NCBI GenBank assembly: GCA_964652725.1
Contig: CAZZAU010000001.1
Span: forward strand, 1-35,109
Direction: 5' to 3'
Length of the DNA stretch: 35,109 bases
Source of the DNA: an uncultured Dehalococcoidaceae bacterium
Lineage (GTDB): Bacteria > Chloroflexota > Dehalococcoidia > Dehalococcoidales > RBG-16-60-22
Under the pieces are notes generated by a model that was given only the letters and a program-made list of their open reading frames with translations, had not been told where the DNA came from and made no database searches. Of this stretch, positions 97-13,374 are shown one piece after another (within the stretch, counting starts at the first letter, position 1; each line of letters starts with the position of its first letter). Position numbers and translations under genes: made by a program.

Positions 97-183
97 CGGA
101 GAGGGTGGGATTCGAACCCACGCTCCGCAAACGCGGAGACCGCTTTTCGAGAGCGGCACCATAAGCCTCTCGGACACCTCTCC
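97..183 (-). tRNA. tRNA-Ser(CGA), complete, no encoded CCA
   Basis: Reverse complement is GGAGAGGTGTCCGAGAGGCTTATGGTGCCGCTCTCGAAAAGCGGTCTCCGCGTTTGCGGAGCGTGGGTTCGAATCCCACCCTCTCCG. Acceptor GGAGAGG pairs with CCTCTCC, followed by discriminator G. Anticodon stem CCGCT/AGCGG has loop CU-CGA-AA. There is a long variable arm (CTCCGC/GCGGAG) and a T loop GGTTCGAATCC. Confidence 0.92.
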
Positions 184-288
184 AGCGGCCCACAAGGAAG
201 CCAAATCAGCTGCGCCAAGCGTTCCGGACGATGGACATAACTATCTCGCCAGCGATTCGGCTACTGAGCTGCTCAGATTTCCATAGCT

Positions 289-317
289 ATTATACCCGCT
301 TGATACCGCCTCGTCAA
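289..317 (-). promoter_or_regulatory. sigma70-like promoter facing the tRNA-Ser genes
   Basis: On the minus strand: TTGACG (312-317), 17-nt spacer, TATAAT (289-294). It lies about 100 nt upstream of the mature 5' end of tRNA-Ser(CGA) at 183. Confidence 0.45.
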
Positions 318-429
318 AGCGGAGCAGCGTCGGGTAAATTAAGGAAAGGCAGCAACTGGCGCTGAAAAAGGCGGAGTGATATGCTATCCTTGGTAGCGGG
401 TAGTGCTGCGCACTGCTTGTGAAGAGAAT

Positions 430-1671
430 ATGCAAAGTGTCAACTCAGCGTCCGAGCCGGCCAGCTTTCTGCTGAGCAGGGTAACCCTGCTTGTGCTGGC
501 CGGAATCTTGCTCGTAGCTGCGTGGAACGGATTGGTGGTCATAGTCATTTTGCTCGGTCTGGCCCTGTCCGCGGCGCTCCTTGCCCGCCTCTGGAGCCGG
601 TTAGCGCTTTCCGGTGTTGGCTGTGAACGGACGTTGAGTGAAGACCACGTCTTCCCCGGCGAGACTATCGAATTGAAGCTGCGGCTCACCAACCGCAAGC
701 TCCTGCCGTTGCCCTGGGTGCGGGCACAGCATTTCGTTCCGCAGCATATGACGGGGGAAGATACGGTCTCCGGAGAGGCTCCGGCCAGAGGCCTTCTGGA
801 GCACAGCGCTTCGCTCTTCTGGTACTCGGCGGTACGCTGGCGCCAGTCTCTGCGTTGTAACCGGAGAGGCTACTATCACCTCGGCGATGTTACCGTTACT
901 TCAGGAGATATCTTCGGCCTGTGCCAGCGCACAGGCGCCTATCCCTCGGCCGACAGTATCACCGTCTACCCGAAAATATACCCCCTGGAGCATCTCGGGC
1001 TGCCGTCCCTGGACCCCCTGGGCGAAAGGAAGGCAGAGAGGCGCATCTTTGAGGACCATACCCGTATCGTCGGAGTGCGGGACTACACCCCCCACGACAG
1101 CCTGCGGCATATCCACTGGAAGGCCAGTGCGCGCCATCAGAACCTGCAGGTAAAGGTGTTTGAACCCACCACGACGTTGAAAGTAGCCCTCCTGCTGGTG
1201 GTGGACAGCTTTGCCGGCGGTGAGCCTGATGATTTTGAGCTCGGTGTGAGCGTAGCCGCCTCCCTGGCCAGCCACGTTATCGAGACCAGGAACCAGGCCG
1301 GGCTGTATGCAAACTCCCGTCTCCCTGTATGGGAGGAAAGAGTGCAGCAGGCTCCGGGCGGAGGTCTCAAGCAACTGGTACACATCCTGGAAGCCCTGGC
1401 CCGCGTGACCTCCCAGCCGAGCGGGCCTTTTGATGCTTTCTTTACGGATATCTGCCGTTCCCTGCCCTGGGGCACCACCTGTGTCTTTATTCTGAATGAG
1501 GTGCCGGAGTATGCAGACCCGCTCCTGCTCCGGTTGAAAGAAAGCGGTTTCAAAACTGTGGTTATGCAAATCGGCAAGAACAAGGAAAACGGTTCTGGGG
1601 CGGTCGGCGCCTGGCACTTCATCGAACGACCGGGGCAGTTTATACAGCACGCTGGAGAGAACGCGTTATGA
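430..1671 (+). CDS. DUF58 domain protein (vWA-like partner of MoxR ATPases)
   Basis: ORF 403-1671. N-terminal hydrophobic helices and the motif VRDYTPHDSLRHIHWKASAR typical of DUF58. ATG at 430 is preferred over GTG at 403. The stop overlaps the next start (ATGA at 1668-1671). Confidence 0.8.
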   Translation: MQSVNSASEPASFLLSRVTLLVLAGILLVAAWNGLVVIVILLGLALSAALLARLWSRLALSGVGCERTLSEDHVFPGETIELKLRLTNRKLLPLPWVRAQHFVPQHMTGEDTVSGEAPARGLLEHSASLFWYSAVRWRQSLRCNRRGYYHLGDVTVTSGDIFGLCQRTGAYPSADSITVYPKIYPLEHLGLPSLDPLGERKAERRIFEDHTRIVGVRDYTPHDSLRHIHWKASARHQNLQVKVFEPTTTLKVALLLVVDSFAGGEPDDFELGVSVAASLASHVIETRNQAGLYANSRLPVWEERVQQAPGGGLKQLVHILEALARVTSQPSGPFDAFFTDICRSLPWGTTCVFILNEVPEYADPLLLRLKESGFKTVVMQIGKNKENGSGAVGAWHFIERPGQFIQHAGENAL

Positions 1672-3044
1672 GAGCAGGGCTGCTGAGAGGCATCCTGACT
1701 GCTTCTATCTTGATAATGGAAGCATCCTGGCTTTTTCTGCTCGTGTACCTGCTCAATGACCGGGGAACAGGCGGAGCCCTGAACATTCCCGGCCTGTTCC
1801 TGGTGTTCTTGCTCGCTTTCGGTGCGAACTGGCCGCTATCCCGGTATGGCTGGCCCCGGGGCTTAAAGGTTGTACTTAACATAATTATCTGGGGGATTGT
1901 CTCTTTGCTGGTCATCAAGTTCCAGATGTACGGGGCCTTCACCCTGGGTGACGTGCGCTGGTTGCAGTCGCTGGGAGAGGCCGTGGCCGGCATATTCCGC
2001 GGCATCAGTCCGGCAGTGGTGGCGCTCATCGGGTGCGCTATACTGTGGTGGTCCGGGCAGAGGCTGGCTTATATGAAGATAGAGTTTAGCACTTCGGTGC
2101 GGGAGTTCCAGTTCGGGTTGCTGGTGGTGCTGCCGCTTCTGTTCGTTGCCGCAGGGCTCGATGTTGACCTCGGTTACGCGGTGCCGGCCGTGCTGGTGTT
2201 CTTCTCTGCGGCGCTGCTTACATTATCGCTGGCGCATGCGCGGGAAAACCATCTTGCGGGTGGCGCGTTCGGCGGCAACTGGCTGGGCATCCTGTTAATG
2301 TGCATTAGCACGGTCCTCATTCTGGGGCTCATTGTCGGTTCCATCATAACGCCCGAACTGCTCCGCATGGCCGCGGCCGGTCTGATATGGCTGTGGAGTA
2401 TCCTGGTGAAAGGAATTGCCTTCATCGCAAGCCTGTTCCCGGCCCCCGATATGCCGGCCCCGGATACCGCGGTCCCGGACGCGGCTCCTGCGCTGCCGCA
2501 GGAGCCGGACTATTCAAAGATATTCGTATTGCCTGAGGTGGTGCGTAATGGTCTGCGTTATGGCTGGTACCTGCTTATGATAGGCTTCTTGCTGGTGTTC
2601 CTGTGGCGTGTCTCGGAGCAGTTCTTCGTCTGGCTGCGGAGAAGCCTGGCTGCAGCGTCCGGCGCCGAGTTCGAGCCGTTGCACGGGGCGTTCGGCGCTG
2701 ACATCCGGGCGCTGCTGGGAGGAGTTTTTGCCTGGTTCGCCGGGTGGCGGAGCCGGTTCAGAAGGCAGGTGGAGACGGAGCCCAGGGAGATTACCTCGGT
2801 GCGCCAGCTTTACCGGCAGCTTCTGCGGTGGGGGGGCAGAGGGGGCCTGCCCAGAGTGGCCAGTCATACCGCTGATGAATACCTGGCCGTCCTGCAGGAG
2901 AGGCTGCCCGCCTACGGGAGCGCCGCTCAATATATTACCGAGTGGTACGTGGTCAGCCGTTACGGTCACGTGGCGCCCTCGGCGGGTGAGATGGAGGAAT
3001 TGAAAAGGAGCTGGCAGCTGCTGAAGCAGCAACGCCTTGCATAA
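1668..3044 (+). CDS. polytopic membrane protein with C-terminal DUF4129-like domain
   Basis: 458-aa ORF with multiple hydrophobic helices, a Pro-rich linker (PAPDMPAPDTAVPD) and one more helix. The soluble tail ADEYLAVLQERLP...YITEWYVVSRYG resembles DUF4129. It sits between the DUF58 and MoxR genes. Confidence 0.65.
   Translation: MRAGLLRGILTASILIMEASWLFLLVYLLNDRGTGGALNIPGLFLVFLLAFGANWPLSRYGWPRGLKVVLNIIIWGIVSLLVIKFQMYGAFTLGDVRWLQSLGEAVAGIFRGISPAVVALIGCAILWWSGQRLAYMKIEFSTSVREFQFGLLVVLPLLFVAAGLDVDLGYAVPAVLVFFSAALLTLSLAHARENHLAGGAFGGNWLGILLMCISTVLILGLIVGSIITPELLRMAAAGLIWLWSILVKGIAFIASLFPAPDMPAPDTAVPDAAPALPQEPDYSKIFVLPEVVRNGLRYGWYLLMIGFLLVFLWRVSEQFFVWLRRSLAAASGAEFEPLHGAFGADIRALLGGVFAWFAGWRSRFRRQVETEPREITSVRQLYRQLLRWGGRGGLPRVASHTADEYLAVLQERLPAYGSAAQYITEWYVVSRYGHVAPSAGEMEELKRSWQLLKQQRLA
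2439..2483 (+). repeat. imperfect 15-nt tandem repeat x3 encoding a P-A-P-D type linker
   Basis: CCGGCCCCCGATATG / CCGGCCCCGGATACC / GCGGTCCCGGACGCG, read directly. It lies in frame inside the 1668-3044 CDS. Confidence 0.6.
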
Positions 3045-3060
3045 GCAACGGAGGTTTATA

Positions 3061-4032
3061 ATGGGGAAAGCATTGCAACCGGTGGATGTTTCCGGGATAG
3101 AGGCGGCTGCCGGCGCCCTGGTGGCGAACATAAACAAGGTTATCGTGGGGAAACGGGATGCCATCCATCTGGTCCTGGTGGCGCTTTTCTGCGAAGGGCA
3201 TGTGTTCATCGAGGATGTGCCCGGCATCGGCAAGACCATGCTGGCCAAATCCACCGCCAGATCGCTCGGCTGCAGTTTCAAACGAATACAGTTCACTCCG
3301 GACCTGCTGCCGTCCGACGTCACCGGCATTTACTACTTTGACCAGAAGAGCGCCGAGTTCCACTTCCGGCCCGGGCCGGTGTTCGCCAATATCGTGCTCG
3401 CCGATGAAATAAACCGGGCCACCCCCCGCACCCAGTCATGCCTGCTGGAGGCGATGCAGGAGCGCCAGGTGACAGTGGACGTCGAGACCATGAGCCTCCC
3501 CCGCCCCTTCATGGTCATCGCCACCCAGAACCCTGTTGAGCTCGAAGGCACGTTTCCGCTGCCGGAAGCCCAGCTTGACCGGTTCCTGCTGCGGGTACGG
3601 CTCGGCTATCCGGATTCCGACGAAGAGGACGCGATACTCACCCGGTTTCAGGAGACCGAGCAGCTGGATAGCCTGGAGCCCGTGGTGCAGGCTCCAGAGC
3701 TGGTTGAATTTCAGAAGCTATGCCGCAGGGTGTACGTGGAAGAATCGGTGCGCAGCTACATCATCGCCATCGTCAGGGCTACCCGGGAGCACAAGGCCGT
3801 CAAGCTGGGGGTCAGCCCGCGGGGCTCGCTCAACCTCTACCTGGCTTCGCAGGCTCTGGCGGCGGTCCGCGGGCGCAACTATGTTACCCCCGATGATGTC
3901 AAACATCTGGCAGCCCCGGTGCTCGCTCACCGCATCATGGTCAGGGCGGAGACGGGCATAAGAGGCCAGTCCGCCGAGCACATTTTGCAGGAGATACTGC
4001 TGACAGTACCGGTGCCCGTGGAAAAAATATAA
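3061..4032 (+). CDS. moxR: MoxR-family AAA+ ATPase
   Basis: Walker A DVPGIGKTMLAK, Walker B IVLADEINRATPRTQS, and TPDLLPSDVTG typical of MoxR. ATG at 3061 is preceded by GGAGG (3050-3054). The ORF opens at 3037. Confidence 0.9.
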   Translation: MGKALQPVDVSGIEAAAGALVANINKVIVGKRDAIHLVLVALFCEGHVFIEDVPGIGKTMLAKSTARSLGCSFKRIQFTPDLLPSDVTGIYYFDQKSAEFHFRPGPVFANIVLADEINRATPRTQSCLLEAMQERQVTVDVETMSLPRPFMVIATQNPVELEGTFPLPEAQLDRFLLRVRLGYPDSDEEDAILTRFQETEQLDSLEPVVQAPELVEFQKLCRRVYVEESVRSYIIAIVRATREHKAVKLGVSPRGSLNLYLASQALAAVRGRNYVTPDDVKHLAAPVLAHRIMVRAETGIRGQSAEHILQEILLTVPVPVEKI

Positions 4033-4035
4033 GGT

Positions 4036-4067
4036 AGCCGGGTAACTTTTGCTTCCGGCTTTCGTTT
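4036..4067 (+). terminator. possible rho-independent terminator after moxR
   Basis: AGCCGG (4036-4041) pairs with CCGGCT (4055-4060), followed by TTCGTTT. The stem is only 6 bp and the loop is 13 nt, so this is a weak call. Confidence 0.3.
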
Positions 4068-4160
4068 GCCACTCTGGCACTGACGCAGGCGCGATGCTCC
4101 GCCGCGGAGCCGGGAAAAATTTCCCCGTACTTTTGTTCCGGGTACTTCCTGTCACAATTA

Positions 4161-4189
4161 TTGACAAATGTCCTGAGAGCACTTATAAT
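4161..4189 (+). promoter_or_regulatory. consensus sigma70-type promoter of the first glycan operon
   Basis: TTGACA (4161-4166), exactly 17 nt, TATAAT (4184-4189). It sits in a 220-bp gap about 64 nt upstream of the GTG start at 4253, which has AGGAGG just upstream. Confidence 0.65.
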
Positions 4190-4252
4190 AGGCCAAATCC
4201 AAGCCAGCATGCTCTCTGAGACCTTTTTATCCGTGACCAGGAGGAAAGAATA

Positions 4253-5095
4253 GTGATTCAAACCAGGGATGCCGAGCAGGCCGATGGCTATTCGCTGAGC
4301 ATCGTCATTCCGGTCAAAGACGAAGCAGACCACATCGGAGACCTGATATCGAGAATCAAGGCCAGCATGAACGGGCATCCCTATGAGATAATAGTGGTCG
4401 ATGACGGGTCGAGGGATGGAACGGAGGAGGTTCTGGCTAAATACGGGGCTCTGGTCATTTCCCATCCAGAGAATCTGGGCAAAGGCGCAGCCATGAAGTC
4501 CGGGGCGGCCAGGGCCACGGGCGATATAGTGGTCTTTATGGATGGTGATGGCGCTCACGAACCACAGGATATTGCCCGGCTCATCGAGCCTATTCTGGAA
4601 CGGAAGGCGGATTTGGTGATCGGCTCCCGGGCATTGCCGGACTCAAGGGTGGTGGTCTCTCCGGGGGGGAGGAGGCTGTGCAACGCGCTGGCCTCCTTCA
4701 TTATTTCTGCGCTAATTTCCCTTCCCCTGCTGAGCTCCGCAGCATTAAAAGGCGTGGTCCGCTATGGCAACAACAATCATAACGGACACCATTCCGCCAA
4801 TTCGAACCACAACGGCAAACGCAAATGGATAGGTATCACTGACTGCACAAGCGGCCTCCGGGCCATAAACAGGGAAAGCTGGCACAAGCTGGGGCTCGTT
4901 TCTCAGGGTTTCCAGATCGAGGCTGAAATGATATATGAAGCGGCCAGGCACCGGCTTAGCATAGCCGAGGTACCCATCAGTTGCAACTGGGACAGCCGTT
5001 TCTCCCATCTTTCCGTGGTCAGAGATGGCCTGAAGACCGCCAATCTGCTCGCCAGGAAGCTGCTGAGAACGAACGGGGCAAAGCCGGCGAGTTAG
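4253..5095 (+). CDS. GT2 glycosyltransferase, DPM1/polyprenyl-phosphate glycosyltransferase-like, with a His/Asn-rich insertion
   Basis: SIVIPVKDEADHI, YEIIVVDDGSRDGT, NLGKGAAMKSG, VVFMDGDGAHEP, DCTSGLRAI and EVPISCNW follow the DPM1-like GT2 layout. GTG start follows AGGAGG. Confidence 0.8.
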   Translation: MIQTRDAEQADGYSLSIVIPVKDEADHIGDLISRIKASMNGHPYEIIVVDDGSRDGTEEVLAKYGALVISHPENLGKGAAMKSGAARATGDIVVFMDGDGAHEPQDIARLIEPILERKADLVIGSRALPDSRVVVSPGGRRLCNALASFIISALISLPLLSSAALKGVVRYGNNNHNGHHSANSNHNGKRKWIGITDCTSGLRAINRESWHKLGLVSQGFQIEAEMIYEAARHRLSIAEVPISCNWDSRFSHLSVVRDGLKTANLLARKLLRTNGAKPAS

Positions 5096-5169
5096 TCAGG
5101 CGCGGGTGCCTTTCCTGCCCCGGATATGGTAAAGTAATTTCTGTCCGCGGTTTACGTGTTTGCTTGTCT

Positions 5170-6135
5170 ATGGAAGCTAGCAGTCATCCCAGGATTTCAG
5201 TGATTATCCCGGTCAAGAATGCGGCTCGTACTATTGAGCAGTGCCTGGAGGCCCTGTTTGACCAGTCCCTCAAACCCCAGGAGGTGATTATCGTGGATGG
5301 GCACTCCACCGACGGCACAGTGGAGCGGGCAAAGAAATATCCGGTAAAGGTCTTCTACCAGGACTACGGTGCCGCGGGCGCGGCGCGCCAGATAGGACTG
5401 GAGCACGCTGAAGGCGAATTTGTGGCCTTTACCGATGGCGATTGCATTCCCGGCCGGGATTGGTTGCGCCATCTGCACGCCGGCCTCGGTGAAGGTATCA
5501 TAGGAGTCGGAGGAAGAATAGAGAACATCGGCGATGGCCTCTGGACACGCTCCGTCAACCTGGCCTTCAGTACTTTCCTGGGCAGCGGACGGTCGGTACA
5601 GGGACGGGCGTTTGCCAGTCAGAAGTACGTCAGAAGCATCAGCGGCTGCAACAGTATGTACCGGCGGGATGACCTGCTCAAAGCGGGAGGTTTCAATCCT
5701 GACCTGTCCGGCGCTGATGAAACCGAGCTGAATGCACGTCTGCTCAAGCACGGCAGGCTACTCTACGTGCAGAAGGCGGGCATCCTCCATGACCACCGGA
5801 GAGGGCTGAGGCAATTTGCCCGGAATATGTTCAATTACGGGGGCTGGCGAAGAGAGTGCGGGGTCTGGGACCTGCCCGTTATCCCGGCGCTGGCGGCACC
5901 GTTTCTGCTCCTCACTTTCATCGCCAGCCGGTGGCTTTTTCCCGGCCTGGTCGCTGCCTATCTGGTGCTGACCGGCATGCTGGGACTCAGGTTCGCCGTA
6001 AAGGAAAGGGATGTCCGTTTCCTCTTCACCATACCGGTAGTCCTCCTGGTAGAGCACTGCTGTTATATCCTCGGTTTCTGGAAGCAGACGGTGCGTCCGC
6101 GCAGGATGACGGCGGCCAACAGGCAAGGAACATGA
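5170..6135 (+). CDS. GT2 glycosyltransferase with C-terminal membrane helices
   Basis: ISVIIPVKNAARTIEQCLEALFDQS, EVIIVDGHSTDGT, AFTDGDCIP, then ADETELNARL...RQFARNMFNYGGW and hydrophobic C-terminal helices. ATG at 5170 chosen; the ORF opens at 4981 inside the preceding gene. Confidence 0.8.
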   Translation: MEASSHPRISVIIPVKNAARTIEQCLEALFDQSLKPQEVIIVDGHSTDGTVERAKKYPVKVFYQDYGAAGAARQIGLEHAEGEFVAFTDGDCIPGRDWLRHLHAGLGEGIIGVGGRIENIGDGLWTRSVNLAFSTFLGSGRSVQGRAFASQKYVRSISGCNSMYRRDDLLKAGGFNPDLSGADETELNARLLKHGRLLYVQKAGILHDHRRGLRQFARNMFNYGGWRRECGVWDLPVIPALAAPFLLLTFIASRWLFPGLVAAYLVLTGMLGLRFAVKERDVRFLFTIPVVLLVEHCCYILGFWKQTVRPRRMTAANRQGT

Positions 6136-7586
6136 ACGTACTCCTGGTTAACCCGCCCTTCAAGGGCAGGTTCTCCCGCACTTCCAGGAGTCCGGCCATT
6201 ACTCTGGGAGGCACCATCTACTACCCTTTCTGGCTGGCCTATGCCGCCGGAGTGCTGGAGCAGAACGGGTACAATGTGCGCCTGGTGGATGCTCCTGCCG
6301 ACGGACTTTCGGTGGAAGATATTATTGCCGGGGCGGAGCCGGCGCCGCCGCGGCTCATAGTGGTGGACACCAGCACCCCCAGTCTCCTTCATGATATCGG
6401 CGTGGCCGGGCGGCTTAAAGACCGCTTTCCTCGGGCCTTTGTCTTGCTGGTGGGAACACATCCTTCGGCCTTCCCCGAACAGACGCTGGCGATGAGCGAC
6501 CGCGTGGATGCAGTGGCTGTGGGCGAGTATGACCATACCCTGCGTGACCTTGCCGGCTGCCTGGAGAGGGGTGGTGACATGGAGGCAGTGGACGGACTGG
6601 TATTGCGGCGAAACGGCCAGGTGACACGCAACCGCCCCCGCGCTCTCATTGAAGAGCTTGACGAACTCCCCTTCGCCAGCGAGGTATACCGCAAACACCT
6701 GAACATCAGGAACTATTTCTTCGCCGCGTCCGATTATCCGATGGTGATGATTATCACCGGGCGGGGCTGTCCGTACAAGTGCTTTTTCTGCGTCTATCCG
6801 CAGACCTTTCACAGTCGGCGGTACCGGCCCCGTAGCGCCGCCAACGTGGTCGACGAGTTCCAGTACATTGCCCGGAACTTGCCGGAGGTAAGGGAGGTCG
6901 GCATAGAGGATGATACCTTCACCGTTGACCAGGAACGGGTCAGGGAGATATGCCGCCTGATAATCGAGCGGGGTATCAGGCTCAAGTGGTACTGTAATGT
7001 GAGGGTCAATCTGGGGCTGGAGACGATGCGATGGATGCGCAAGGCAGGCTGCCGTCTGGTCACCGTGGGCTTTGAGAGCGCGGACCAGGCGTCCCTCAAC
7101 CGTATGCATAAAGGAATAACGGTGGAGCAGATAAAGGAATTCGTGCGCAATACCAGGAAGGCCGGCTTGCTGGTACACGGCTGCTTTATGATGGGCAATC
7201 CCGGCGAGACCAGGGAGAGTATGGAGCAGAGCCTGAAGCTGGCAAAGGAGCTCAACTGCGATACGATGCAGTTTTACCCGCTGCTGGTTTACCCTGGGAC
7301 GGAGGCCTACGCCTGGGCGAAAGAAAGGGGCTACCTTATCTCAGAGAACTATGCCGATTGGGCAGACGAAGCAGGCATGTACCGCAGTCTGCTGGATATT
7401 CCGGGCCTCCCCCACGAGGAAATTGAGGCCTTTTGCCGGCGGGCCATCCGGGAATACTATCTGCGCCCCCGGTATATGGTGATGAAGCTGGGAAGCATGG
7501 TCAGGCACCCGGATGAAATCAGGCGTGTGCTGCCGGCGACGAGGACATTTTTCCAGCGCTATTTCAGGAAACCAGGGGGCTGCTGA
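6132..7586 (+). CDS. B12-binding domain radical SAM protein (class B rSAM, methylase-like)
   Basis: N-terminal Rossmann-like region MNVLLVNPPF...VRLVDAP...IVVDTST...LVGTHPS. rSAM cluster motif GRGCPYKCFFCVYP (CxxxCxxC). ATG at 6132 overlaps the stop of the preceding GT2 (ATGA). Confidence 0.85.
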   Translation: MNVLLVNPPFKGRFSRTSRSPAITLGGTIYYPFWLAYAAGVLEQNGYNVRLVDAPADGLSVEDIIAGAEPAPPRLIVVDTSTPSLLHDIGVAGRLKDRFPRAFVLLVGTHPSAFPEQTLAMSDRVDAVAVGEYDHTLRDLAGCLERGGDMEAVDGLVLRRNGQVTRNRPRALIEELDELPFASEVYRKHLNIRNYFFAASDYPMVMIITGRGCPYKCFFCVYPQTFHSRRYRPRSAANVVDEFQYIARNLPEVREVGIEDDTFTVDQERVREICRLIIERGIRLKWYCNVRVNLGLETMRWMRKAGCRLVTVGFESADQASLNRMHKGITVEQIKEFVRNTRKAGLLVHGCFMMGNPGETRESMEQSLKLAKELNCDTMQFYPLLVYPGTEAYAWAKERGYLISENYADWADEAGMYRSLLDIPGLPHEEIEAFCRRAIREYYLRPRYMVMKLGSMVRHPDEIRRVLPATRTFFQRYFRKPGGC

Positions 7587-7635
7587 TTTGTTTCTGCAGC
7601 GGGGGAAGAAAGGTGGGAAGAAATGGACGAAACCG

Positions 7636-8373
7636 ATGGAACATAACTGGCAGCGGGGCGCTATCAGCAAGATAGTACGAAACATCTGGCAGAGCACCGA
7701 TGCCGAGAACAGAAGAACCGTCCTGAGCCTCTTTGAGAAAAGCAGCACGGCCAGGGTGGTGGACTTGGGATGCGAAGGAGGGAACTTCACCAGGAAACTG
7801 GGAGAGTACATCGGCAGTGGCGAGATATACGGAGTGGACAACCGGCTTGAATATGAAGCCGCCGCCCGGGATAACGGGGTGACCTTCTGCCTCTCCGACC
7901 TCAATAAGCCGCTGTCGCTCGAAAGTGAGCTGTTTGATGCGGCTCACGCCGGACAGGTCATAGAGCATTTGCCCGCCACCGACGTGTTCGTGAAGGAATG
8001 CTACCGCATACTCAAACCGGGCGGCTACATCGTTCTGACCACACCAAACCTGGCGGGATTACATAACATCATCCCCTTGCTGCTCGGAATGCAGCCGCTC
8101 AGCACCGATATAAGCAACGAGGTCTGGCTCGGCAACCGGTTCAGCCCTTACCAGGGTATGCGCCGTCCGGTGGCGGGCTATCAATATCATCTGAGGATAT
8201 TTACATATTCAGGCCTGAAGGAACTTTTCCGGTTTCACGGGTTCCGGGTGGAGAGTATGCTGGGGGCGGGCTTCTATCCCTTTCCGTCGAGTATGGCTCG
8301 GATCATGGCGCGGGTTGACCCCCGCCATGCCGCGTACCTGATTATTAAGGCACGCAAAGTATGTGCAATATGA
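7636..8373 (+). CDS. class I SAM-dependent methyltransferase
   Basis: Motif I VVDLGCEGGNF; post-I and motif II region AGQVIEHLPATD...LKPGGYIVLTTPN. First in-frame ATG after the rSAM stop; the ORF opens at 7513. Confidence 0.75.
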   Translation: MEHNWQRGAISKIVRNIWQSTDAENRRTVLSLFEKSSTARVVDLGCEGGNFTRKLGEYIGSGEIYGVDNRLEYEAAARDNGVTFCLSDLNKPLSLESELFDAAHAGQVIEHLPATDVFVKECYRILKPGGYIVLTTPNLAGLHNIIPLLLGMQPLSTDISNEVWLGNRFSPYQGMRRPVAGYQYHLRIFTYSGLKELFRFHGFRVESMLGAGFYPFPSSMARIMARVDPRHAAYLIIKARKVCAI

Positions 8374-9023
8374 AGGTGAAAAAGAGAAAACGCCGCGCCG
8401 GATACCTGTATAGCCCTGCGGAGATTTTTGACTTCTTCAAGCCACGGGGGCTGGTGCTGGATTTGGGGTGCGGTGGAGGGAGGAACACCCACTTCATGCT
8501 GGAGCAAGGGCTTGCTGTAGTGGCTATGGACAATTCTCCAAAATTGGTGTCACTGGACAACAATGCAGTCCGAAGTGATGGGACAGAGCTTCCCTTCAGA
8601 GACGAATCCTTTGATAGCGTACTATGCAACCATGTGCTGGAGCACCTACCTGATCCGGAACCGTGCATTAAAGAGGTGCACCGCGTGTTGAAAAGAGCAG
8701 GAGTGGCCTGTTTCGCTGCGCCGTGTCTCAATATTCCGCTGAAGATGCTGGTGCCCTTGTATCGCAGGCTCGCGCGTTTCGACCTTACCCGTGCACGGGA
8801 AGAGCATCTACATGTATTCAGCGTCAGACAACTTCTCTCCATGCTGGAGCCCTCTTTCCAGCTTACCGACGTCCGTTATACAGACTTCGCCACCATCATG
8901 CAGCGTCGGATGGGCATCGGTTACGGCCTAGACCACCTGCTATCGGCAGCCACCGAGAAAGTATCTCCCCTCCGCTATTTTGCCGCCAGTGTGCTTGTCA
9001 GGTGCATTAAACTTCAGGATTGA
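8361..9023 (+). CDS. class I SAM-dependent methyltransferase (Methyltransf_11-like)
   Basis: VLDLGCGGGRN, LPFRDESFDSVLCNHVLEHLPDP. The alternative start at 8370 would give an ATGA overlap with the preceding stop (8371-8373). Confidence 0.75.
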   Translation: MCNMKVKKRKRRAGYLYSPAEIFDFFKPRGLVLDLGCGGGRNTHFMLEQGLAVVAMDNSPKLVSLDNNAVRSDGTELPFRDESFDSVLCNHVLEHLPDPEPCIKEVHRVLKRAGVACFAAPCLNIPLKMLVPLYRRLARFDLTRAREEHLHVFSVRQLLSMLEPSFQLTDVRYTDFATIMQRRMGIGYGLDHLLSAATEKVSPLRYFAASVLVRCIKLQD

Positions 9024-9041
9024 CCTAGCGTTAATAATGGA

Positions 9042-10205
9042 ATGGATGGAAAAAGACGCAATATAGCGCTGGTAACCATACCCATCGCCAACCTGAAGGG
9101 CGACCCGGTGCTCCCCCTGGTGGAGATACTGAGAGAAGCCTGTGATGAGCTTCACGTTGTCACCGCCGGGCCGTACCTTGAGAAATGCCTGTCCAGCACC
9201 AGCGTGCATATCCGGAAAGTCAGTCCGGTATCACCGGGCGAGCACTGGATGAAGAAGATGATGAAATATGTGGGCGTGCAGTGGAAGACCTGTGTCAACA
9301 TCAAAAAAATCTCCGGCAGAATCGATACCGTGGTGTTTGCGGCGGGCAGCACCCTTTTCCTGCTGCCGTTGCTTTTGAGCAAGCTCCTGAGGAAGAAGGT
9401 GATATCCATAGTCGTCGCTTCCGAGCCCAGGATGGCCAGAGTGATGTACGGCAAGGCTATCGGTGGAATGGGAGGCATCCTTTTTTACTTCATCTTCAAA
9501 CTACTGGAGATGGCCAACTGCTCCCTGTCCGACCGGATAGTGGTCAGCTTCGAGACCACCGTTGACCACGTGGGCTTGAGGCGGTACGGGGACAAGGTGG
9601 TGATAGGTAACTACAACAACTACTACGTCGGGGAGCATTTCAGCATCCGCAAAAGCCTGGCGGAAAGAGCAAATACCATCGGCTATGTGGGCCGCCTGAG
9701 CCGGGAGAAAGGGGTGCTGGAGCTCGCCGAAGCCATTCCTCTCGTGGTAAGCAGGATAGAAGGAGCGCGCTTTCTCATCATCGGCGATGGCTCCCTGGCT
9801 GCCGAGATGAAGGTGGCGTTGAGAGAGGCAGGCTGCCTGGAACGAGTAGCCTTCGCCGGCTGGGTCTCGCCCGATGAGGTAGCGGCCTATCTCAACCGGA
9901 TGAAGCTCTTCGTCCTGCCATCTTATACGGAGGGGGGCAGCCGCACCTGCCTGGAAGCTATGGCCTGCGGCGCCATCGTGCTGGCGAGCGCGGTGGGCGG
10001 GTTGCTGAGCATGGTGACCGACGGCAAGACGGGGTTTTTGCTGGAGGATAACAGGCCACATACTATCGCCGCGAAGCTTGCGGAGGTCTGGGACCACCCC
10101 GGGCTGGGGGATGTTCAGAAACGGGCCAGCTCCTATGTGAAAAAGAACTTCTCTTATTCGAAGGCGGTGGCCAGGTGGGAAGAGATATTGAGCGGCATAT
10201 CATAG
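9042..10205 (+). CDS. GT4-family (GT-B) glycosyltransferase
   Basis: YVGRLSREKGV, LIIGDGSL, VLPSYTEGGSRTCLEAMACGAIVLASAVGGL...DGKTGFLLE (E-x7-E type GT4 C-terminal domain). Confidence 0.85.
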   Translation: MDGKRRNIALVTIPIANLKGDPVLPLVEILREACDELHVVTAGPYLEKCLSSTSVHIRKVSPVSPGEHWMKKMMKYVGVQWKTCVNIKKISGRIDTVVFAAGSTLFLLPLLLSKLLRKKVISIVVASEPRMARVMYGKAIGGMGGILFYFIFKLLEMANCSLSDRIVVSFETTVDHVGLRRYGDKVVIGNYNNYYVGEHFSIRKSLAERANTIGYVGRLSREKGVLELAEAIPLVVSRIEGARFLIIGDGSLAAEMKVALREAGCLERVAFAGWVSPDEVAAYLNRMKLFVLPSYTEGGSRTCLEAMACGAIVLASAVGGLLSMVTDGKTGFLLEDNRPHTIAAKLAEVWDHPGLGDVQKRASSYVKKNFSYSKAVARWEEILSGIS

Positions 10206-10215
10206 CCTGAAAGAG

Positions 10216-10812
10216 ATGCATATGGCAAAACATACCGACTATAATCTGTGGCTGCTGGAAGAGAAGAAGAAGTATCTGGAGCTTTTCCCGGAAGACGTTT
10301 CCACCGTGCTGGATGTGGGCTGCGGGAGGGGTGAGCTGCTGCATATCCTCAAAGGTCGTGGCTACGAGCGCGTGGAAGGGTGCGACGTGGACGAGAGGTG
10401 CCTGGAAAAAAGCGCGCGGTTCGCTCCGGTAAGCAGGGTAGATATCCTGGAACTGTCAAAGCGTTTTCCGCCGGGTAGTTTTGATCTGACAGTATGCCTC
10501 CATATTCTTGAGCATGTGCCGCATCCGTATCTGGCCTTGCAGGAATTGAAGGCGGTAAGCAGCAAATACATATTGCTCGCGGTGCCCAATGCCCGTTGCA
10601 TTGCCTATGATGAGAGTCCGGCCCATCTTTACAGCTGGAATGGAGACACCTTGCGGAACCTTATTGAAGCTGCCGGACTAAAAGTGATAAAACTGAAGCA
10701 GGACAGGACAAATCTGTTTCCCAATGTCCTGAGATTCGCTCCGGTGATAAACAGGGTGCTGCTCAAATTATTCGTGGGGCCGAATGAGCTGGTAGTATTG
10801 TGCACCAAGTAA
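10216..10812 (+). CDS. class I SAM-dependent methyltransferase
   Basis: VLDVGCGRGELL, FDLTVCLHILEHVPHP. Confidence 0.75.
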   Translation: MHMAKHTDYNLWLLEEKKKYLELFPEDVSTVLDVGCGRGELLHILKGRGYERVEGCDVDERCLEKSARFAPVSRVDILELSKRFPPGSFDLTVCLHILEHVPHPYLALQELKAVSSKYILLAVPNARCIAYDESPAHLYSWNGDTLRNLIEAAGLKVIKLKQDRTNLFPNVLRFAPVINRVLLKLFVGPNELVVLCTK

Positions 10813-10836
10813 CGCCAGATATTGTATGGAATTAAG

Positions 10837-12012
10837 ATGATGAAGAGACCACCAACCATTGCCGTAGTCACCTTCCCTCTGTATAACCAGGTCCCCCTGT
10901 GCTCTCTGGTGCTGATTTTGCGGGAGCTGGCACGGGAGCTGACTGTGATTACGGGCGATTTCCCGCCGGACGGGGTAGGACAGAATGTGCGCGTGGTCAA
11001 CATCAGTTATGAATCGAAGAATCGGTCACTGCCAGGGCGTATACTGGGATACCTGCTCATCCAGCTTAAAATATCGTACCGTCTGCTGACTGATGGGAGG
11101 AAGGCGGACATCGTTTTCTTCTTTGTTGGCGGCGCCATGCTTACCTTTCCCGTCCTTGCCGCCAGACTGATGAACAAGAGGACGGTCCAGCTTGTGGCCG
11201 GCTCCGGCTCTATGAGCGCCAGGGACACCTACCGGAAATATCTGTTCGGTGGTGGCGGTGCCGTTTTCGGCCCCATTCTGGGGGCCGCGGAAAGGCTCAG
11301 CTTTGCTCTCTGCGATAAGATTGTTACGTACACAGGGAGCACAGTGCAGGCTTTGGGACTGGACAGATACCGTCACAAGCTCGTCACCAACGGAGCCCGC
11401 TTCGTGGATACGGACTCGTTCCGGGTGCTCAAAAGACCGGACGAACGGAAAAACATAATCGGCTATGTCGGTCGTTTTAGCCCTGAAAAAGGCATTCTGG
11501 ACCTGGTCAGGGCTATTCCTGTGGTGCTGGCCGGAACGGACAACGCCGAGTTCGTTATCCGGGGAGACGGCCCGTTGCGCGAGCAAATAGAGGCAGGGCT
11601 GGCAGGCTGTCCGGGCAGGGAGCGGGTGACCGTTGCCGGCTGGATTCCCAACAGAGAGATGCCACAGGCCCTCAACCGGCTCAAGTTGCTGGTTTTGCCC
11701 TCGCATACGGAGGGCCTGCCGGGAATCATCATGGAGGCGATGGCCTGCGGGACGCCGGTCCTGGCTACACCGGTTGGCGGCGTACCCGACCTGATAACCC
11801 ATGGTGAAACGGGCTTCTTTCTCGCAGACAGCTCCCCGGAGACAATTGCCCGGGGCATCCTGGAGGCGCTGCAGCACCCGGCATTGCCGGCTATCGTCAG
11901 CAATGCCCGTAGTCTGATTGAGAAAGAATATACGTTTGCCGCGGCCGTAAAACGTTATACTGAAATCCTGGCCCGGCCACAGGAATCCTGCCCTGAAGGT
12001 GCTTCACTATGA
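10837..12012 (+). CDS. GT4-family glycosyltransferase (paralog of 9042-10205)
   Basis: YVGRFSPEKGI, VIRGDGPL, VLPSHTEGLPGIIMEAMACGTPVLATPVGGVPDLITHGETGFFL. ATG at 10837 chosen; the ORF opens with TTG at 10822. Confidence 0.85.
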   Translation: MMKRPPTIAVVTFPLYNQVPLCSLVLILRELARELTVITGDFPPDGVGQNVRVVNISYESKNRSLPGRILGYLLIQLKISYRLLTDGRKADIVFFFVGGAMLTFPVLAARLMNKRTVQLVAGSGSMSARDTYRKYLFGGGGAVFGPILGAAERLSFALCDKIVTYTGSTVQALGLDRYRHKLVTNGARFVDTDSFRVLKRPDERKNIIGYVGRFSPEKGILDLVRAIPVVLAGTDNAEFVIRGDGPLREQIEAGLAGCPGRERVTVAGWIPNREMPQALNRLKLLVLPSHTEGLPGIIMEAMACGTPVLATPVGGVPDLITHGETGFFLADSSPETIARGILEALQHPALPAIVSNARSLIEKEYTFAAAVKRYTEILARPQESCPEGASL

Positions 12013-13367
12013 AAGCTCTGAGCAAGCATATTTTTACCCCGCTGCTGGAAAGACGAGTGCACGGAAGCACCTTCAAGCGGCTGAAAGAACTGGAGCATAC
12101 GCAGTGGTGGCCGCGGGAAAAGCTCGTTGCGCTGCAAAACGTACGGCTCGTCGGGCTGATAAGCGCTGCTTACCAGAACACTGCGTATTACCGGAAAGCG
12201 CTGGCCGAGCGCGGACTCGTGCCGCAGAACATCAGCACGATGGACGACCTCGCGAAGCTGCCCGTGCTGACCAGGGCGGCGGTGAGAGACAACTTCCATG
12301 CCCTCATAGCGGAAAACCTGAAGCCAGGCCGGATGAAGCTGGGAGAGACGGGCGGCACCACCGGCGAGCCGCTGAGATTCATGAAACCCGGGGACGAGGG
12401 GTGGGGCTGGGGCGCCTACTACCGCGGTCTGGAGTGGTACGGGTTGAGCAGCGGAGACAAACATTCCCTTATCTGGGGTTACTCTCCCGCCGCCTCCAGA
12501 GTCGCCTCATTCCTGGCCGGGACAGGGCATTTCCTGAGAAATTGCGCTTTCCTTAATGCCTTTGACCTGTCCGAAGCCAGAATGGCGGCGTTTGCCTCGA
12601 AACTGAAGAAGTTCCAGCCCAAGGCCATAGCGGGATACTCGTCCGCAGTATATATCTTTGCCGAGTACGTAAAACAGAGCCAGATTCAGGGTATCAGGCC
12701 GGGACTGGCGATTACCACTGCCGAGAAGCTGTACGATTACCAGAGACAGGCAATAAAGGAAGCATTTGAGTGCGACGTATTTCAGTACTACGGCTCGCGA
12801 GAAGTCGCCTCTCTGGGCTATGAATGCCCGCAGCATCACGGCTATCACACTTCTATGGAGAACGTGGTGCTGGAAACAGTCGATGAGCGCGGCAATCGGG
12901 TAAAGCCCGGAGAGGTGGGAAGGGTGCTGGTGACCGACCTCCACAACTATGCCATGCCGCTGATTCGCTACGAGTTGGGGGACCTGGGGATTCTATCAGA
13001 TGAAGCATGCCCGTGCGGACGAGGGCTATCAGTCATCGCATCAATCGAAGGGAGAATGACGGACGTCATCGTTTGTTCCCGGGGATTCATATCACCGGTG
13101 GCGCTTACTACCTATGTTTTCAAAGACATGCCTGTCAGGCAATTTCAAGTAGTTCAGGAAACGCTCGATGACGTCCGGGTGAAGGTGGTGCCCGGCGAGG
13201 GGTTCGGCAGGGAAGAAACCGGGCGTATCAAAGAAGCCCTGCAGGCCCGCATGGGTATGGGGACGCATGTCGGCGTGGAGCTTGTTGATGATATCCCGCC
13301 ATCACCATCGTCAGGGAAGCGGCGGGTGGTGATATCAAAGGTGCCTTCTCAGCACAACGGGCTTTAG
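12009..13367 (+). CDS. PaaK/CapK-like adenylate-forming enzyme (phenylacetate-CoA ligase / F390 synthetase family)
   Basis: GETGGTTGEPLRF (AMP-binding P-loop analogue of SSGTTGKP), YYGSREV, and the length and layout of CapK-like capsule proteins. Start overlaps the previous stop (ATGA at 12009-12012). Confidence 0.7.
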   Translation: MKALSKHIFTPLLERRVHGSTFKRLKELEHTQWWPREKLVALQNVRLVGLISAAYQNTAYYRKALAERGLVPQNISTMDDLAKLPVLTRAAVRDNFHALIAENLKPGRMKLGETGGTTGEPLRFMKPGDEGWGWGAYYRGLEWYGLSSGDKHSLIWGYSPAASRVASFLAGTGHFLRNCAFLNAFDLSEARMAAFASKLKKFQPKAIAGYSSAVYIFAEYVKQSQIQGIRPGLAITTAEKLYDYQRQAIKEAFECDVFQYYGSREVASLGYECPQHHGYHTSMENVVLETVDERGNRVKPGEVGRVLVTDLHNYAMPLIRYELGDLGILSDEACPCGRGLSVIASIEGRMTDVIVCSRGFISPVALTTYVFKDMPVRQFQVVQETLDDVRVKVVPGEGFGREETGRIKEALQARMGMGTHVGVELVDDIPPSPSSGKRRVVISKVPSQHNGL

Positions 13368-13374
13368 AGTTCTG

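Follow-up and report, generated by a model that had tools for sequence, protein, structure and literature searches.

Class B radical SAM enzymes are mostly methylases, and both MoeK5 and GenK C-methylate glycosides. For HpnJ, the contraction of a glycoside ring has been proposed on genetic evidence only, and Cds is likewise proposed, again from genetic evidence only, to contract a ring on archaeal lipids (PMC13459092, PMC9204698). At a stringent similarity-network threshold, HpnJ is reported to co-cluster with the C-methylases Fom3 and MoeK5 (PMC9204698). The substrate of AprD4 is an aminosugar glycoside, and this enzyme does not bind cobalamin (PMC12931638). Regarding glycosyltransferases, PcManGT binds GDP-mannose (PMC12595478), and undecaprenyl-P-GlcNAc is made by GacI/GacJ (bioRxiv 10.1101/180810). 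These systems were compared with a gene pair that encodes a membrane glycosyltransferase (GT2b) and a radical SAM protein (rSAM) in a glycan operon of a window of 35,109 nucleotides, the whole stretch of DNA that was analysed (Table 1).

Table 1. Positions of the gene pair and of further relevant features in the window
Feature	Positions	Strand	Remarks
GT2a, AglJ/PpgS-like GT2 (polyprenyl-phosphate sugar synthase type)	4253-5095	+	PF00535, E 5e-32
GT2b, conserved partner glycosyltransferase	5170-6135	+	ATG 5170, TGA 6133-6135; PF00535, E 3.5e-28
ATGA overlap of GT2b stop and rSAM start	6132-6135	+	rSAM ATG 6132-6134 shares TG with the stop; translational coupling
rSAM	6132-7586	+	484 aa; PF02310 and PF04055 (Pfam); member of the family sister to HpnJ
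CX3CX2C cluster motif C213-P-Y-K-C217-F-F-C220	6768-6791	+	From translation
MT1, class I SAM methyltransferase	7636-8373	+	PF13489/PF08241; ATG 7636 most likely start
MT2, class I SAM methyltransferase	8361-9023	+	PF08241, E 1.7e-23
Class I methyltransferase	10216-10812		Pfam
MT4, class I methyltransferase	17335-18192	-	Methyltransf_23/11 (Pfam); 63 bits to module methyltransferase profile
Second PpgS-like GT2	21216-22190
SDR epimerase/dehydratase and HddC-, HddA-, GmhA-like genes (GDP-heptose-type pathway)	23166-26387	+	Pfam, NCBIfam
Class I methyltransferase	30776-31555		Pfam

Genetic organization of the GT2b-rSAM locus

The deduced rSAM protein comprises a B12-binding domain (PF02310, residues 27-140, E 2.6e-14) and a Radical_SAM domain (PF04055, residues 207-371, E 9.1e-24), and its AF2 model has a pLDDT of 91.8. 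Translation and Pfam domains thus confirmed the B12-binding-domain radical SAM protein with a CPYKCFFC motif that had been predicted to start at position 6132. This motif is invariant in 62 aligned homologues, and its cysteines C213, C217 and C220 are unchanged throughout alignments A1 and A3 and common to HpnJ. The ATGA overlap of the rSAM start codon with the GT2b stop codon was read directly from the sequence, and a 4-nt overlap is likewise present in the loci L001, L007, L008, L010, L011, L012 and L014 and, in general, in most Chloroflexi loci. A 4-nt overlap alone is common in operons; the coupling is considered a non-chance feature because the adjacency is kept in 56 of 82 loci of many phyla, in which a GT2 gene is located on the same strand within 250 bp of rSAM. 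The number rises to 66 loci within 2.5 kb, and the approximately 16 loci without a same-strand GT2 gene at this distance include several short contigs. The order of the two genes flips between clades, and the junctions remain tight. GT2b and rSAM form a gene pair that is retained in many uncultured anaerobes, and the domains, the overlap and the conserved adjacency bear out the prediction that a B12-domain radical SAM protein is coupled with a membrane GT2 within the glycan operon.

In GT2b, a GT-A catalytic domain (approximately residues 1-210) is followed by an interface helix and, at the C-terminus, by three membrane helices. Homology to the rSAM-adjoining GT2 proteins of other phyla spans the entire protein (69% identity in L001 and 28% over 317 amino acids in L005), and the residues D43, D89-x-D91 and H207 are invariant in the GT2 family alignment A2. 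A Foldseek search with the AF2 model of GT2b (pLDDT 90.1) yielded PcManGT (6yv7) as the top match (E 4e-15), followed by hyaluronan synthases (TM 0.63-0.66). PcManGT is also the only PDB chain covered by the GT2b family profile over positions 5-267, and BcsA is weakly aligned at positions 161-309. GT2b thus has a minimal synthase-like membrane fold of the PcManGT type. The synthase-like fold of the original prediction was thereby retained, whereas its degenerate QxxRW motif was not, as the Q is not retained throughout the GT2 family in alignment A2. An assignment of GT2b to the GtrB/DPMS/ArnC type of enzymes making polyprenyl-phosphate sugars was ruled out by profile and fold comparison.

The GT2a gene ends 74 nt upstream of GT2b, and its best NCBIfam matches are AglJ (118 bits) and PpgS (96 bits), both under the cut-off. 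The order PpgS-like GT2, GT2 and rSAM recurs in the Chloroflexi loci L012, L015 and L016, and 18 of the 82 loci contain a PpgS-like GT2 gene within 6 kb of rSAM. The patescibacterial locus L003 includes a GacI/GacJ-type pair of a short GT2 and a DUF2304 protein, with the stop codon of the DUF2304 gene overlapping the rSAM start. DUF2304 genes were found near the module in eight further loci, and the minimal module of L001 includes a DedA/VTT gene. The heptose-type genes of the window are located 16 kb downstream of the module, with NCBIfam scores for HddC, HddA and GmhA (117, 138 and 110 bits) that are all under the cut-off, and GDP-heptose-type families occur within 6 kb of rSAM in 10-17 of the 82 loci.

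As predicted, two class I methyltransferase genes follow rSAM, and five are present in the whole window. The MT1 open reading frame opens at position 7513 and overlaps rSAM as far as the rSAM stop codon (7586). Two start codons, 8361 and 8370, are possible for MT2, and the one at 8370 would create another ATGA overlap, here with the stop codon of MT1. In other phyla, rSAM and GT2 are accompanied by a small methyltransferase, which in P0090 is fused to rSAM. Against a profile of 17 module methyltransferases and the P0090 C-terminus, MT1 gave no match and MT2 only 37 bits, and MT4 was the best, though weak, match in the entire genome. Judged by these profile comparisons, MT1 and MT2 are local to this operon and lie outside the conserved rSAM-GT2 module, which weakens the original prediction.

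The rSAM family and its relationship to HpnJ

Homologues of rSAM with identities of 49-77% were detected in more than 15 phyla, and family members are also encoded by CPR and DPANN organisms, the genomes of which are ultra-small (0.5-1.0 Mb). Judged by sequence comparison, rSAM belongs to a large, widespread, highly conserved and uncharacterised family. The HpnJ model (TIGR03471, NCBIfam) scored rSAM with 402 bits, below its cut-off of 577.6 and hence below equivalog level, and no other modelled class B family exceeded 164 bits (BchE). ML trees computed without Fom3, MoeK5, GenK and Cds resolve the rSAM family as a clade (100/98) that is sister to true HpnJ (100/99). Full-length sequences of the two groups are 33-37.5% identical, and HpnJ shares 48 of the 79 family-invariant residues, whereas an N-terminal FSRTSRSP motif and the conserved C351 and C435 are specific to the rSAM family. 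The identification of rSAM as a true HpnJ was rejected owing to the score below the cut-off and to three genomes in which a true HpnJ (617-755 bits) coexists with a separate family member (approximately 390-400 bits). Because these genomes carry both proteins, the rSAM family is regarded as a distinct paralogue of HpnJ; in the Brocadiaceae carrying both, true HpnJ adjoins HpnK.

One reading of this kinship is that the pair replaces HpnI/HpnJ here, with GT2 glycosylating bacteriohopanetetrol and rSAM contracting the sugar to the cyclitol ether head group. The genome does contain a hopanoid operon on contig C12, the composition of which is normal for the bin, with genes for a squalene-hopene cyclase (784 bits), HpnH (427 bits), HpnA (438 bits) and an HpnG-like protein, and the genome of the closest relative (G006) has a cyclase too. 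Since a genome search revealed no true HpnJ, HpnI or HpnK, the HpnJ-like rSAM would be the sole candidate for the cyclitol step. However, the pair is located in the 30-kb glycan operon and outside the hopanoid operon, GT2b did not match HpnI, and the neighbourhoods of the family loci lack a conserved deacetylase of the HpnK type. Moreover, only 6-7 of 50 genomes with the rSAM family contain the cyclase, and the family represents a separate locus in genomes holding true HpnJ, which renders a hopanoid role highly improbable.

The original prediction regarded rSAM as a cobalamin-dependent C-methyltransferase that methylates an unactivated carbon of the GT2-handled sugar or lipid and thereby generates a branched-chain sugar. 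The class B architecture of the Pfam domains is consistent with this function, as is the similarity to the cobalamin binders TokK and CysS, which spans residues 84/95-390 and, unlike the similarity to AprD4, extends into the N-terminal domain. The putative cobalamin-binding GE motif (G131-E132) is invariant and the S/T-rich downstream motif (D79-T-S-T-P-S84) is conserved across the family alignments, both as defined in PMC9204698. Additionally, characterised class B enzymes are mostly methylases, and HpnJ groups with Fom3 and MoeK5 (PMC9204698). The suggested check on cobalamin supply revealed CobS and CobT in the genome, which makes a corrinoid supply plausible. On the other hand, the Gly-Gly base-off motif is imperfect and reads G108-T109, and the modelled methylase families HpnR (100 bits, cut-off 650), PhpK (139 bits), KedN5 (76 bits) and RiPP C-methyltransferase (106 bits) all score far under HpnJ. 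The top structure match is a non-methylase, AprD4, and the family extends to ultra-small CPR/DPANN genomes. Such carriers would need imported cobalamin. In the proposed phylogeny check, rSAM grouped with the non-methylating HpnJ among the sequences available, i.e. without Fom3, MoeK5 and GenK. The functional coupling of rSAM to a membrane GT2 thus stood, while C-methylation was weakened by the HpnJ sisterhood and the AprD4 fold and is considered somewhat unlikely.

AprD4 is the top PDB match of rSAM both by sequence (E 1.4e-22, 23% identity) and by fold (Foldseek with the AF2 model; 6FD2, E 8e-26, TMq 0.75, TMt 0.80). These matches, along with the imperfect Gly-Gly motif, would fit an AprD4-like, cobalamin-independent radical dehydratase, or an epimerase or oxidase, with the sugar installed by the GT2 as the substrate for deoxygenation or isomerisation and the N-terminal Rossmann domain as a structural relic. 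Such an activity is nevertheless quite improbable, as the sequence similarity is confined to residues 194-427, representing the radical SAM barrel, the score with the AprD4 family model (NCBIfam) is 101 bits and thus far below the cut-off of 500, the GE and downstream cobalamin motifs are invariant in the rSAM family, and the surroundings of the 82 loci show no conserved reductase partner of the AprD3 type.

Proposed function of the gene pair

GT2b and rSAM probably constitute a module for radical sugar tailoring that depends on the GT2 and belongs to a distinct family, the sister of HpnJ. The best explanation as a whole, held with slightly less than even confidence, is a two-enzyme module for the HpnJ-type, non-methylating remodelling of a GT2-placed sugar. 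A non-methylating rearrangement is tentatively taken as the single most likely chemistry of rSAM, with confidence a step further below even, and is favoured because HpnJ, Cds and AprD4, the nearest characterised relatives, have glycosides as substrates and do not belong to the methylases. As HpnJ and Cds are known by genetic evidence only, an HpnJ-like chemistry would itself rest on an unproven reaction. A C-methylated sugar is just one of several possible products of the module.

With regard to acceptor, donor sugar and type of reaction, the following scheme is inferred. The membrane-embedded, synthase-like GT2b would move a sugar from a nucleotide sugar to a membrane-bound acceptor, which may be either a lipid or a glycan intermediate carried by a lipid; this membrane or lipid link is suggested by the GT2b fold, the GacI/GacJ-type pair of L003, the DUF2304 genes, the PpgS-like GT2s and the DedA/VTT gene. 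A GDP-activated donor with manno or heptose configuration is possible, because GDP-heptose-type genes are recurrent and PcManGT binds GDP-mannose. The soluble rSAM, presumably produced in a fixed ratio to GT2b via the ATGA overlap, would take a hydrogen atom from the newly attached sugar by means of the 5'-deoxyadenosyl radical and then remodel this sugar, either by an HpnJ-type contraction of the glycoside ring to a carbocycle or by a related redox-neutral rearrangement. The remodelled product would join the surface glycan made by the remainder of the operon.

Comparison with known systems

The rSAM family resembles HpnJ in the same-length architecture of B12 domain and radical SAM domain, in its position as sister clade (100/99) and in the cooperation with a GT2 that attaches the sugar before its remodelling; in the case of HpnJ, which acts with HpnI and HpnK in bacteriohopanetetrol cyclitol ether synthesis, this GT2 is HpnI. 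Unlike HpnJ, the family is found mostly in genomes without squalene-hopene cyclase, and its genes lie within glycan clusters that frequently include heptose-activation genes, next to a GT2 that is not HpnI-like and without a conserved HpnK. AprD4 (6FD2), the radical SAM 1,2-diol dehydratase of apramycin, shares the N-terminal Rossmann-like domain, the barrel, a similar size and a sugar within a glycoside as substrate, whereas the rSAM family retains the GE and S/T-rich cobalamin motifs, in contrast to the cobalamin-free AprD4, and is devoid of an AprD3-type partner. The cobalamin-dependent sugar C-methyltransferases GenK, GenD1, MoeK5 and Fom3 and the hopanoid methylases HpnP/HpnR belong to the same enzyme class with the same domain order, and several of them act on glycosides or lipid-linked sugars; rSAM differs from them by the scores of 76-139 bits for the modelled families and by the G-T reading of the Gly-Gly motif, Fom3, MoeK5 and GenK being outside this comparison.

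With respect to GT2b, PcManGT (6YV7) from Pyrobaculum calidifontis, a minimal membrane GT2 of the cellulose-synthase-like type, uses a GDP-sugar donor and shares the arrangement of GT-A domain, interface helix and membrane helices. GT2b differs from it in an identity of only about 20%, the missing N-terminal helix, the three C-terminal membrane helices and the lack of a conserved QxxRW motif. GT2b is not of the type of GacI/GacJ and PpgS/Rv3632, which combine a polyprenyl-phosphate HexNAc synthase with a DUF2304 helper, and its C-terminus gave no DUF2304 match, but genes related to these systems accompany the module in many loci.

Gene organization of the GT2b-rSAM region

The coordinates and features originally predicted for the stretch of the window comprising the GT2, radical SAM and methyltransferase genes were borne out by the analysis. 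The start codon of the rSAM gene, located at 6132-6134, shares the proposed ATGA overlap with the stop codon of the GT2b gene. The predicted CPYKCFFC motif and B12-binding-like N-terminus of the rSAM protein were likewise recovered, the former as C213-PYK-C217-FF-C220 and the latter as a match to the B12-binding domain PF02310 (residues 27-140, E 2.6e-14), along with a match to the Radical_SAM domain PF04055 (residues 207-371, E 9.1e-24). Two class I methyltransferase genes, MT1 and MT2, are indeed located downstream of rSAM, and five class I methyltransferases were counted across the window.

Features of the window containing the GT2b-rSAM pair
Feature	Coordinates	Strand	Description
Operon	4253-14481		tightly packed; GT2a, GT2b, rSAM, MT1, MT2, GT4, MT3, GT4, PaaK-like ligase, GT4
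GT2a	4253-5095		PpgS-like GT2, directly upstream of GT2b
GT2b	5170-6135		GT2 partner of rSAM; ATG 5170, TGA 6133-6135
rSAM	6132-7586		B12-binding-domain radical SAM protein, 484 aa
Mini-ORF	7623-7646		seven codons (ATG GAC GAA ACC GAT GGA ACA TAA)
MT1	7636-8373	+	class I methyltransferase; most likely start 7636
MT2	8361-9023	+	class I methyltransferase; start 8361 or 8370
MT3	10216-10812		class I methyltransferase
PaaK-like ligase	12009-13367		
MT4	17335-18192	-	class I methyltransferase
PpgS-like GT2	21216-22190		
Over-extended ORF	22209-24722	-	DUF1616 match confined to C-terminal ~22209-23050
Epimerase and nucleotidyltransferase genes	23166-24818	+	
SDR/HddC/HddA/GmhA-like block	23166-26387		
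Fifth methyltransferase	30776-31555		class I methyltransferase

Several additional details of the gene layout were recorded. If MT2 starts at 8370 instead of 8361, its start codon shares a further ATGA, at 8370-8373, with the stop codon of MT1. A strong Shine-Dalgarno-like stretch rich in purines (AAGGTGGGAAG) precedes the mini-ORF, which overlaps the MT1 start codon in a different frame; the mini-ORF may serve as a leader or in coupling, or its presence may be due to chance. For the PaaK-like ligase the best match was the 'DVU_1553 family AMP-dependent CoA ligase' with 145 bits, and for MT2 it was the 'DVU_1556 family methyltransferase' with 71 bits, neither score reaching its cut-off. These matches hint at a connection with a set of uncharacterised Desulfovibrio genes. 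The minus-strand ORF at 22209-24722 is an over-extension, and plus-strand epimerase and nucleotidyltransferase genes lie at 23166-24818.

Relationship of the rSAM protein to HpnJ and other radical SAM enzymes

The best NCBIfam match of the rSAM protein by a wide margin was the model of HpnJ (TIGR03471), an enzyme of bacteriohopanetetrol cyclitol ether synthesis, with 402.3 bits (E 3e-120) across almost the entire protein, which is below the equivalog cut-off of 577.6 bits. The next scores were those of BchE (164 bits), PhpK (139), a P-methyltransferase (115), AprD4 (101) and HpnR (100). The protein was assigned to none of the modelled methylase families HpnR, PhpK, KedN5, RiPP C-methyltransferase, Mmp10/MgmA and TsrM, with scores of 41-139 bits versus cut-offs of 282-700, nor to the AprD4 family (NF033070; cut-off 500 bits), and no NCBIfam model matched it to Fom3, MoeK5, GenK or Cds. 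At E <= 1e-40 the HpnJ model also matches genes in the control genomes of Sulfolobus acidocaldarius and Thermotoga maritima, the former gene possibly encoding the calditol synthase Cds.

The relationship to HpnJ was resolved by a maximum likelihood tree of 47 sequences (LG+C20+F+G4), with other B12-domain radical SAM paralogues of the same loci as outgroups. The original prediction had drawn on class B methylases such as GenK and Fom3 for comparison; the present tree, calculated without Fom3, MoeK5, GenK and Cds, places the rSAM family as sister of HpnJ in a joint clade with support 100/99, in agreement with a quick tree. The family itself forms a clade with support 100/98, in which one divergent copy on a long branch is nested. 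Moreover, a family member and a true HpnJ (617-755 bits) coexist in an Acidobacteriota MAG, a Sulfotelmatobacter MAG and a Brocadiaceae genome, in the last of which the true HpnJ gene is located two genes away from hpnK; the window's rSAM protein is 33-37.5% identical to these three HpnJ proteins. Of the 79 residues that are invariant in the family, 48 are common to HpnJ, and the N-terminal FSRTSRSP motif as well as the conserved residues C351 and C435 are family-specific. On account of the tree, the coexistence with true HpnJ and the family-specific residues, the rSAM protein is a member of a distinct sister family of HpnJ and not an HpnJ orthologue.

This family of thousands of sequences is strongly conserved, its members being at least 49% identical throughout bacteria and archaea, and has no described function; no characterised member was found in a literature search. 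In 5.8 billion proteins searched, over 4,000 homologues were detected, of which the top 120 are 55-77% identical to the rSAM protein and carry generic names only, and a scan of species-representative genomes detected 80 family loci at 46-76% identity. The mean column identity of the family alignments is 68-69%. The carriers include Dehalococcoidia and other Chloroflexota, Patescibacteria, Scalindua, Brocadiaceae, Magnetococcales, Acidobacteriota and Nitrospirota, as well as Clostridia, Gastranaerophilales, Muribaculaceae, Omnitrophota, and DPANN and other archaea. A cultured organism, Halanaerobacter jeridensis DSM 23230, also has a family gene, with a GT2 gene next to it (L058). Occurrence is patchy, with a family gene in six of 151 sampled genomes of the window's own class, and the family tree is discordant with organismal taxonomy, which together suggest horizontal spread along with glycan loci. 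Near-identical members were observed across gut phyla, in two Gastranaerophilales loci and one of Muribaculaceae (L045, L065 and L056; branch lengths 0.09-0.12), and between a 'Maribacter' MAG (L023) and a Brocadiaceae genome (L031), pointing to either recent horizontal transfer or mis-binning.

In the AlphaFold2 model of the rSAM protein (pLDDT 91.8), a Rossmann domain of five strands precedes the radical SAM barrel. Residues 2-146 form five beta-alpha units of a Rossmann-type cobalamin-binding domain, and the CX3CX2C motif with the invariant residues C213, C217 and C220 is located in a partial TIM barrel. In the PDB, AprD4 ranked first in the sequence search (E 1.4e-22) as well as in the fold comparison (E 8e-26, TMq 0.75, TMt 0.80), in the latter ahead of TsrM, CysS, MgmA, OxsB and TokK. 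Structures of OxsB, TsrM and TokK define three cobalamin-contact motifs, namely a downstream G-x-S/T-x-X after beta3, a Gly-Gly position and a GE at the start of alpha5 (PMC9204698). Two of these are recognizable in the rSAM protein: the GE motif corresponds to G131-E132, with E132 invariant in the family, and the S/T-rich stretch D79-T-S-T-P-S84 follows beta3, while the Gly-Gly position reads G108-T109. Given this motif state in the family, cobalamin binding is plausible. Cobalamin supply, a point raised with the original prediction, is represented in the genome by CobS and CobT. The CobS match on contig C7 of the same genome (32-701) falls into two adjacent pieces, 32-304 and 336-701, which suggests that this corrinoid salvage gene is frameshifted, misassembled or a pseudogene.

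Coupling of the rSAM family to membrane glycosyltransferases

The genetic context of the family was surveyed by calling and clustering ORFs around rSAM in 82 non-redundant loci. In 56 of them a GT2 gene was detected on the same strand within 250 bp of rSAM, and the number rises to 66 when the distance is extended to 2.5 kb. The order in Chloroflexota is GT2-rSAM, mostly with the same 4-nt overlap as in the window; in other phyla it is rSAM-GT2, the two genes being separated by up to 2 nt or overlapping by up to 17 nt. The partner GT2 proteins are homologous over their full length, GT2b being 69% identical to that of locus L001 and 28% identical over 317 aa to that of L005, and share the invariant residues D43, D89-x-D91 and H207. 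Apparent rSAM-GT2 fusion proteins in L024 and L029 were rejected as over-extended ORF calls, the two reading frames being different and overlapping. These data show that the family is obligatorily coupled to a synthase-like membrane GT2 within surface-glycan loci.

GT2b exhibits the characteristics of such a protein, namely the DXD motif (invariant D89-x-D91), a conserved (A/E)(D/E)xEL acidic motif near residue 185, an interface helix and membrane helices. Its AlphaFold2 model (pLDDT 90.1) consists of a GT-A domain followed by four helices (213-230, 235-252, 256-278 and 284-308). The top Foldseek match was PcManGT (6yv7; E 4e-15), a 'minimal cellulose-synthase-like' archaeal mannosyltransferase, and the highest TM scores were obtained with hyaluronan synthases (TMq 0.63-0.66). 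The GT2b family profile covered PcManGT over positions 5-267 and aligned weakly with BcsA over 161-309. The original remark on a synthase-type GT2 is supported by these fold matches and the profile coverage; its second element, a degenerate QxxRW, did not hold up, as the window has RQFARNMFNYGGWR and the Q is not conserved across the 34 aligned partners, only G224 and R227 being nearly invariant. The Q(Q/R)xRW motif of processive synthases was accordingly not recognized in GT2b. The protein is not of the GtrB/DPMS/ArnC type either: single-sequence comparison gave E 1e-3 for DPMS (5mlz) and E 3e-3 for ArnC, and these proteins ranked low even with the family profile, matched the N-terminal region only and were absent from the top 50 fold matches. 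Unlike GT2b, the adjacent GT2a is a glycosyltransferase of the polyprenyl-phosphate type. A fusion of a GacI-like GT2 with DUF2304 was also considered for GT2b and rejected, the C-terminal 101 residues lacking a Pfam match at E <= 1 and the fold being PcManGT-like.

Within 6 kb of rSAM, the families enriched in the 82 loci comprised GT4 glycosyltransferases (23 loci), SPASM radical SAM proteins (20), SDR epimerases (19), PpgS/GacI-like short GT2s (18), HddC-like nucleotidyltransferases (17; fused to GmhB in L003), HddA-like kinases (15), phosphoglycosyl transferases (14), GmhA-like isomerases (10) and DUF2304 proteins (8). A minimal stand-alone module on a Dehalococcoidia contig consists of genes for DedA, a methyltransferase, GT2 and rSAM. 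GacI and GacJ, a GT2 and a DUF2304 protein, synthesize undecaprenyl-phosphate-GlcNAc (bioRxiv 10.1101/180810). From the neighbouring families, the PpgS-like GT2s, the role of GacI/GacJ and the minimal module we infer a membrane-bound, lipid-linked substrate, often with a GDP-heptose-type donor. The loci L003 (Patescibacteria, 6999-17434) and L005 (Scalindua, 1-11145) contain, around the family gene, three to five further B12-domain radical SAM paralogues as well as SPASM radical SAM genes, and those of L003 are interleaved with the GDP-heptose pathway genes for the HddC-GmhB fusion, HddA and GmhA.

Additionally, a small methyltransferase of approximately 205 aa is encoded within 6 kb of rSAM in 17 loci, usually just downstream of the GT2 gene. 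The metagenome protein P0090 (ENA, 709 aa) is a natural fusion, residues 1-478 being a family rSAM with 60% identity to that of the window and the C-terminal part a class I methyltransferase. This argues that a methyltransferase takes part in the same sequence of pathway steps as rSAM. The best match of the module methyltransferase profile in the window's genome was MT4, at only 63 bits. MT1 and MT2 were discarded as the conserved partners, since they are not orthologous to the methyltransferases of L001 or of the L005 type and the module profile did not match MT1.

Hopanoid genes and the predicted reaction of the family

The same genome, which is small (1.75 Mb) and Dehalococcoidia-like, has on contig C12 (locus L098, 2166-10889) a hopanoid operon that looks complete. 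The operon encodes Dxs, a polyprenyl synthase, a type 2 IPP isomerase, HpnH (427 bits), an HpnG-like protein, HpnA (438 bits) and the squalene-hopene cyclase SHC (784 bits). C12 showed no sign of being a binning contaminant, its tetranucleotide distance lying at the 39th percentile of the bin, and the cyclase is also encoded by the closest relative (G006), most relatives being without it. The unexpected presence of SHC and HpnH in a genome without HpnI, HpnJ and HpnK would fit a role of GT2b and rSAM in decorating bacteriohopanetetrol, but SHC and HpnH are encoded on a contig other than that of the pair, which resides in a glycan operon, and HpnI (TIGR03472) was neither among the GT2b matches at E <= 1e-3 nor matched anywhere in the genome. 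Moreover, the family gene is retained in genomes that have a true HpnJ, and only 6-7 of 50 family-carrying genomes possess the cyclase, so that hopanoid specificity of the family in general was dismissed and a hopanoid substrate in this organism is considered very improbable.

The rSAM protein would act on the sugar that has just been attached by GT2b to a membrane-bound acceptor. The reading ranked first, although tentatively, is a non-methylating rearrangement of this GT2-installed sugar, because the nearest characterised relatives, HpnJ and AprD4, are non-methylating sugar-remodelling enzymes. These relatives, the only characterised ones, stand for a rare kind of radical chemistry on sugars, deoxygenation by AprD4 and the proposed ring contraction by HpnJ. 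The substrate of AprD4, a radical SAM 1,2-diol dehydratase, is an aminosugar glycoside, and the enzyme does not bind cobalamin (PMC12931638); ring contraction by HpnJ and Cds has been proposed on genetic evidence only (PMC13459092). The C-methylation of a sugar, as initially predicted, ranks second and is somewhat doubtful: methylases make up most of the class B enzymes, and similarity networks are reported to put HpnJ close to Fom3 and MoeK5 (PMC9204698), but the rSAM protein misses the cut-offs of every modelled methylase family.

The GT2b-rSAM pair may be viewed as the counterpart, in glycan loci, of the HpnI/HpnJ logic. Once defined, the reaction of the family would extend the surface-glycan chemistry of bacteria and archaea by a new kind of sugar modification, also in CPR bacteria, DPANN archaea and gut anaerobes, groups in which this chemistry is almost unexplored. 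Should the enzyme prove to require cobalamin, the surface structure of the carrier cells would be linked to a cobalamin supply. With respect to genome annotation, a B12-binding radical SAM gene in a glycan locus should not automatically be regarded as a C-methylase gene, and members of the family should not be named HpnJ.

A more specific and rather unlikely form of the rearrangement is that the family represents a general 'glycan carbocyclase', a radical SAM enzyme of the cobalamin type that would contract or rearrange a pyranose, possibly a heptose, delivered by the partner membrane GT2 into an ether-linked, acid-stable carbocycle. Cyclitol-type residues are to our knowledge confined so far to the head groups of hopanoids and Sulfolobus lipids; if such a carbocyclase exists, these residues would occur widely among the surface glycans of CPR bacteria, DPANN archaea and uncultured anaerobes.
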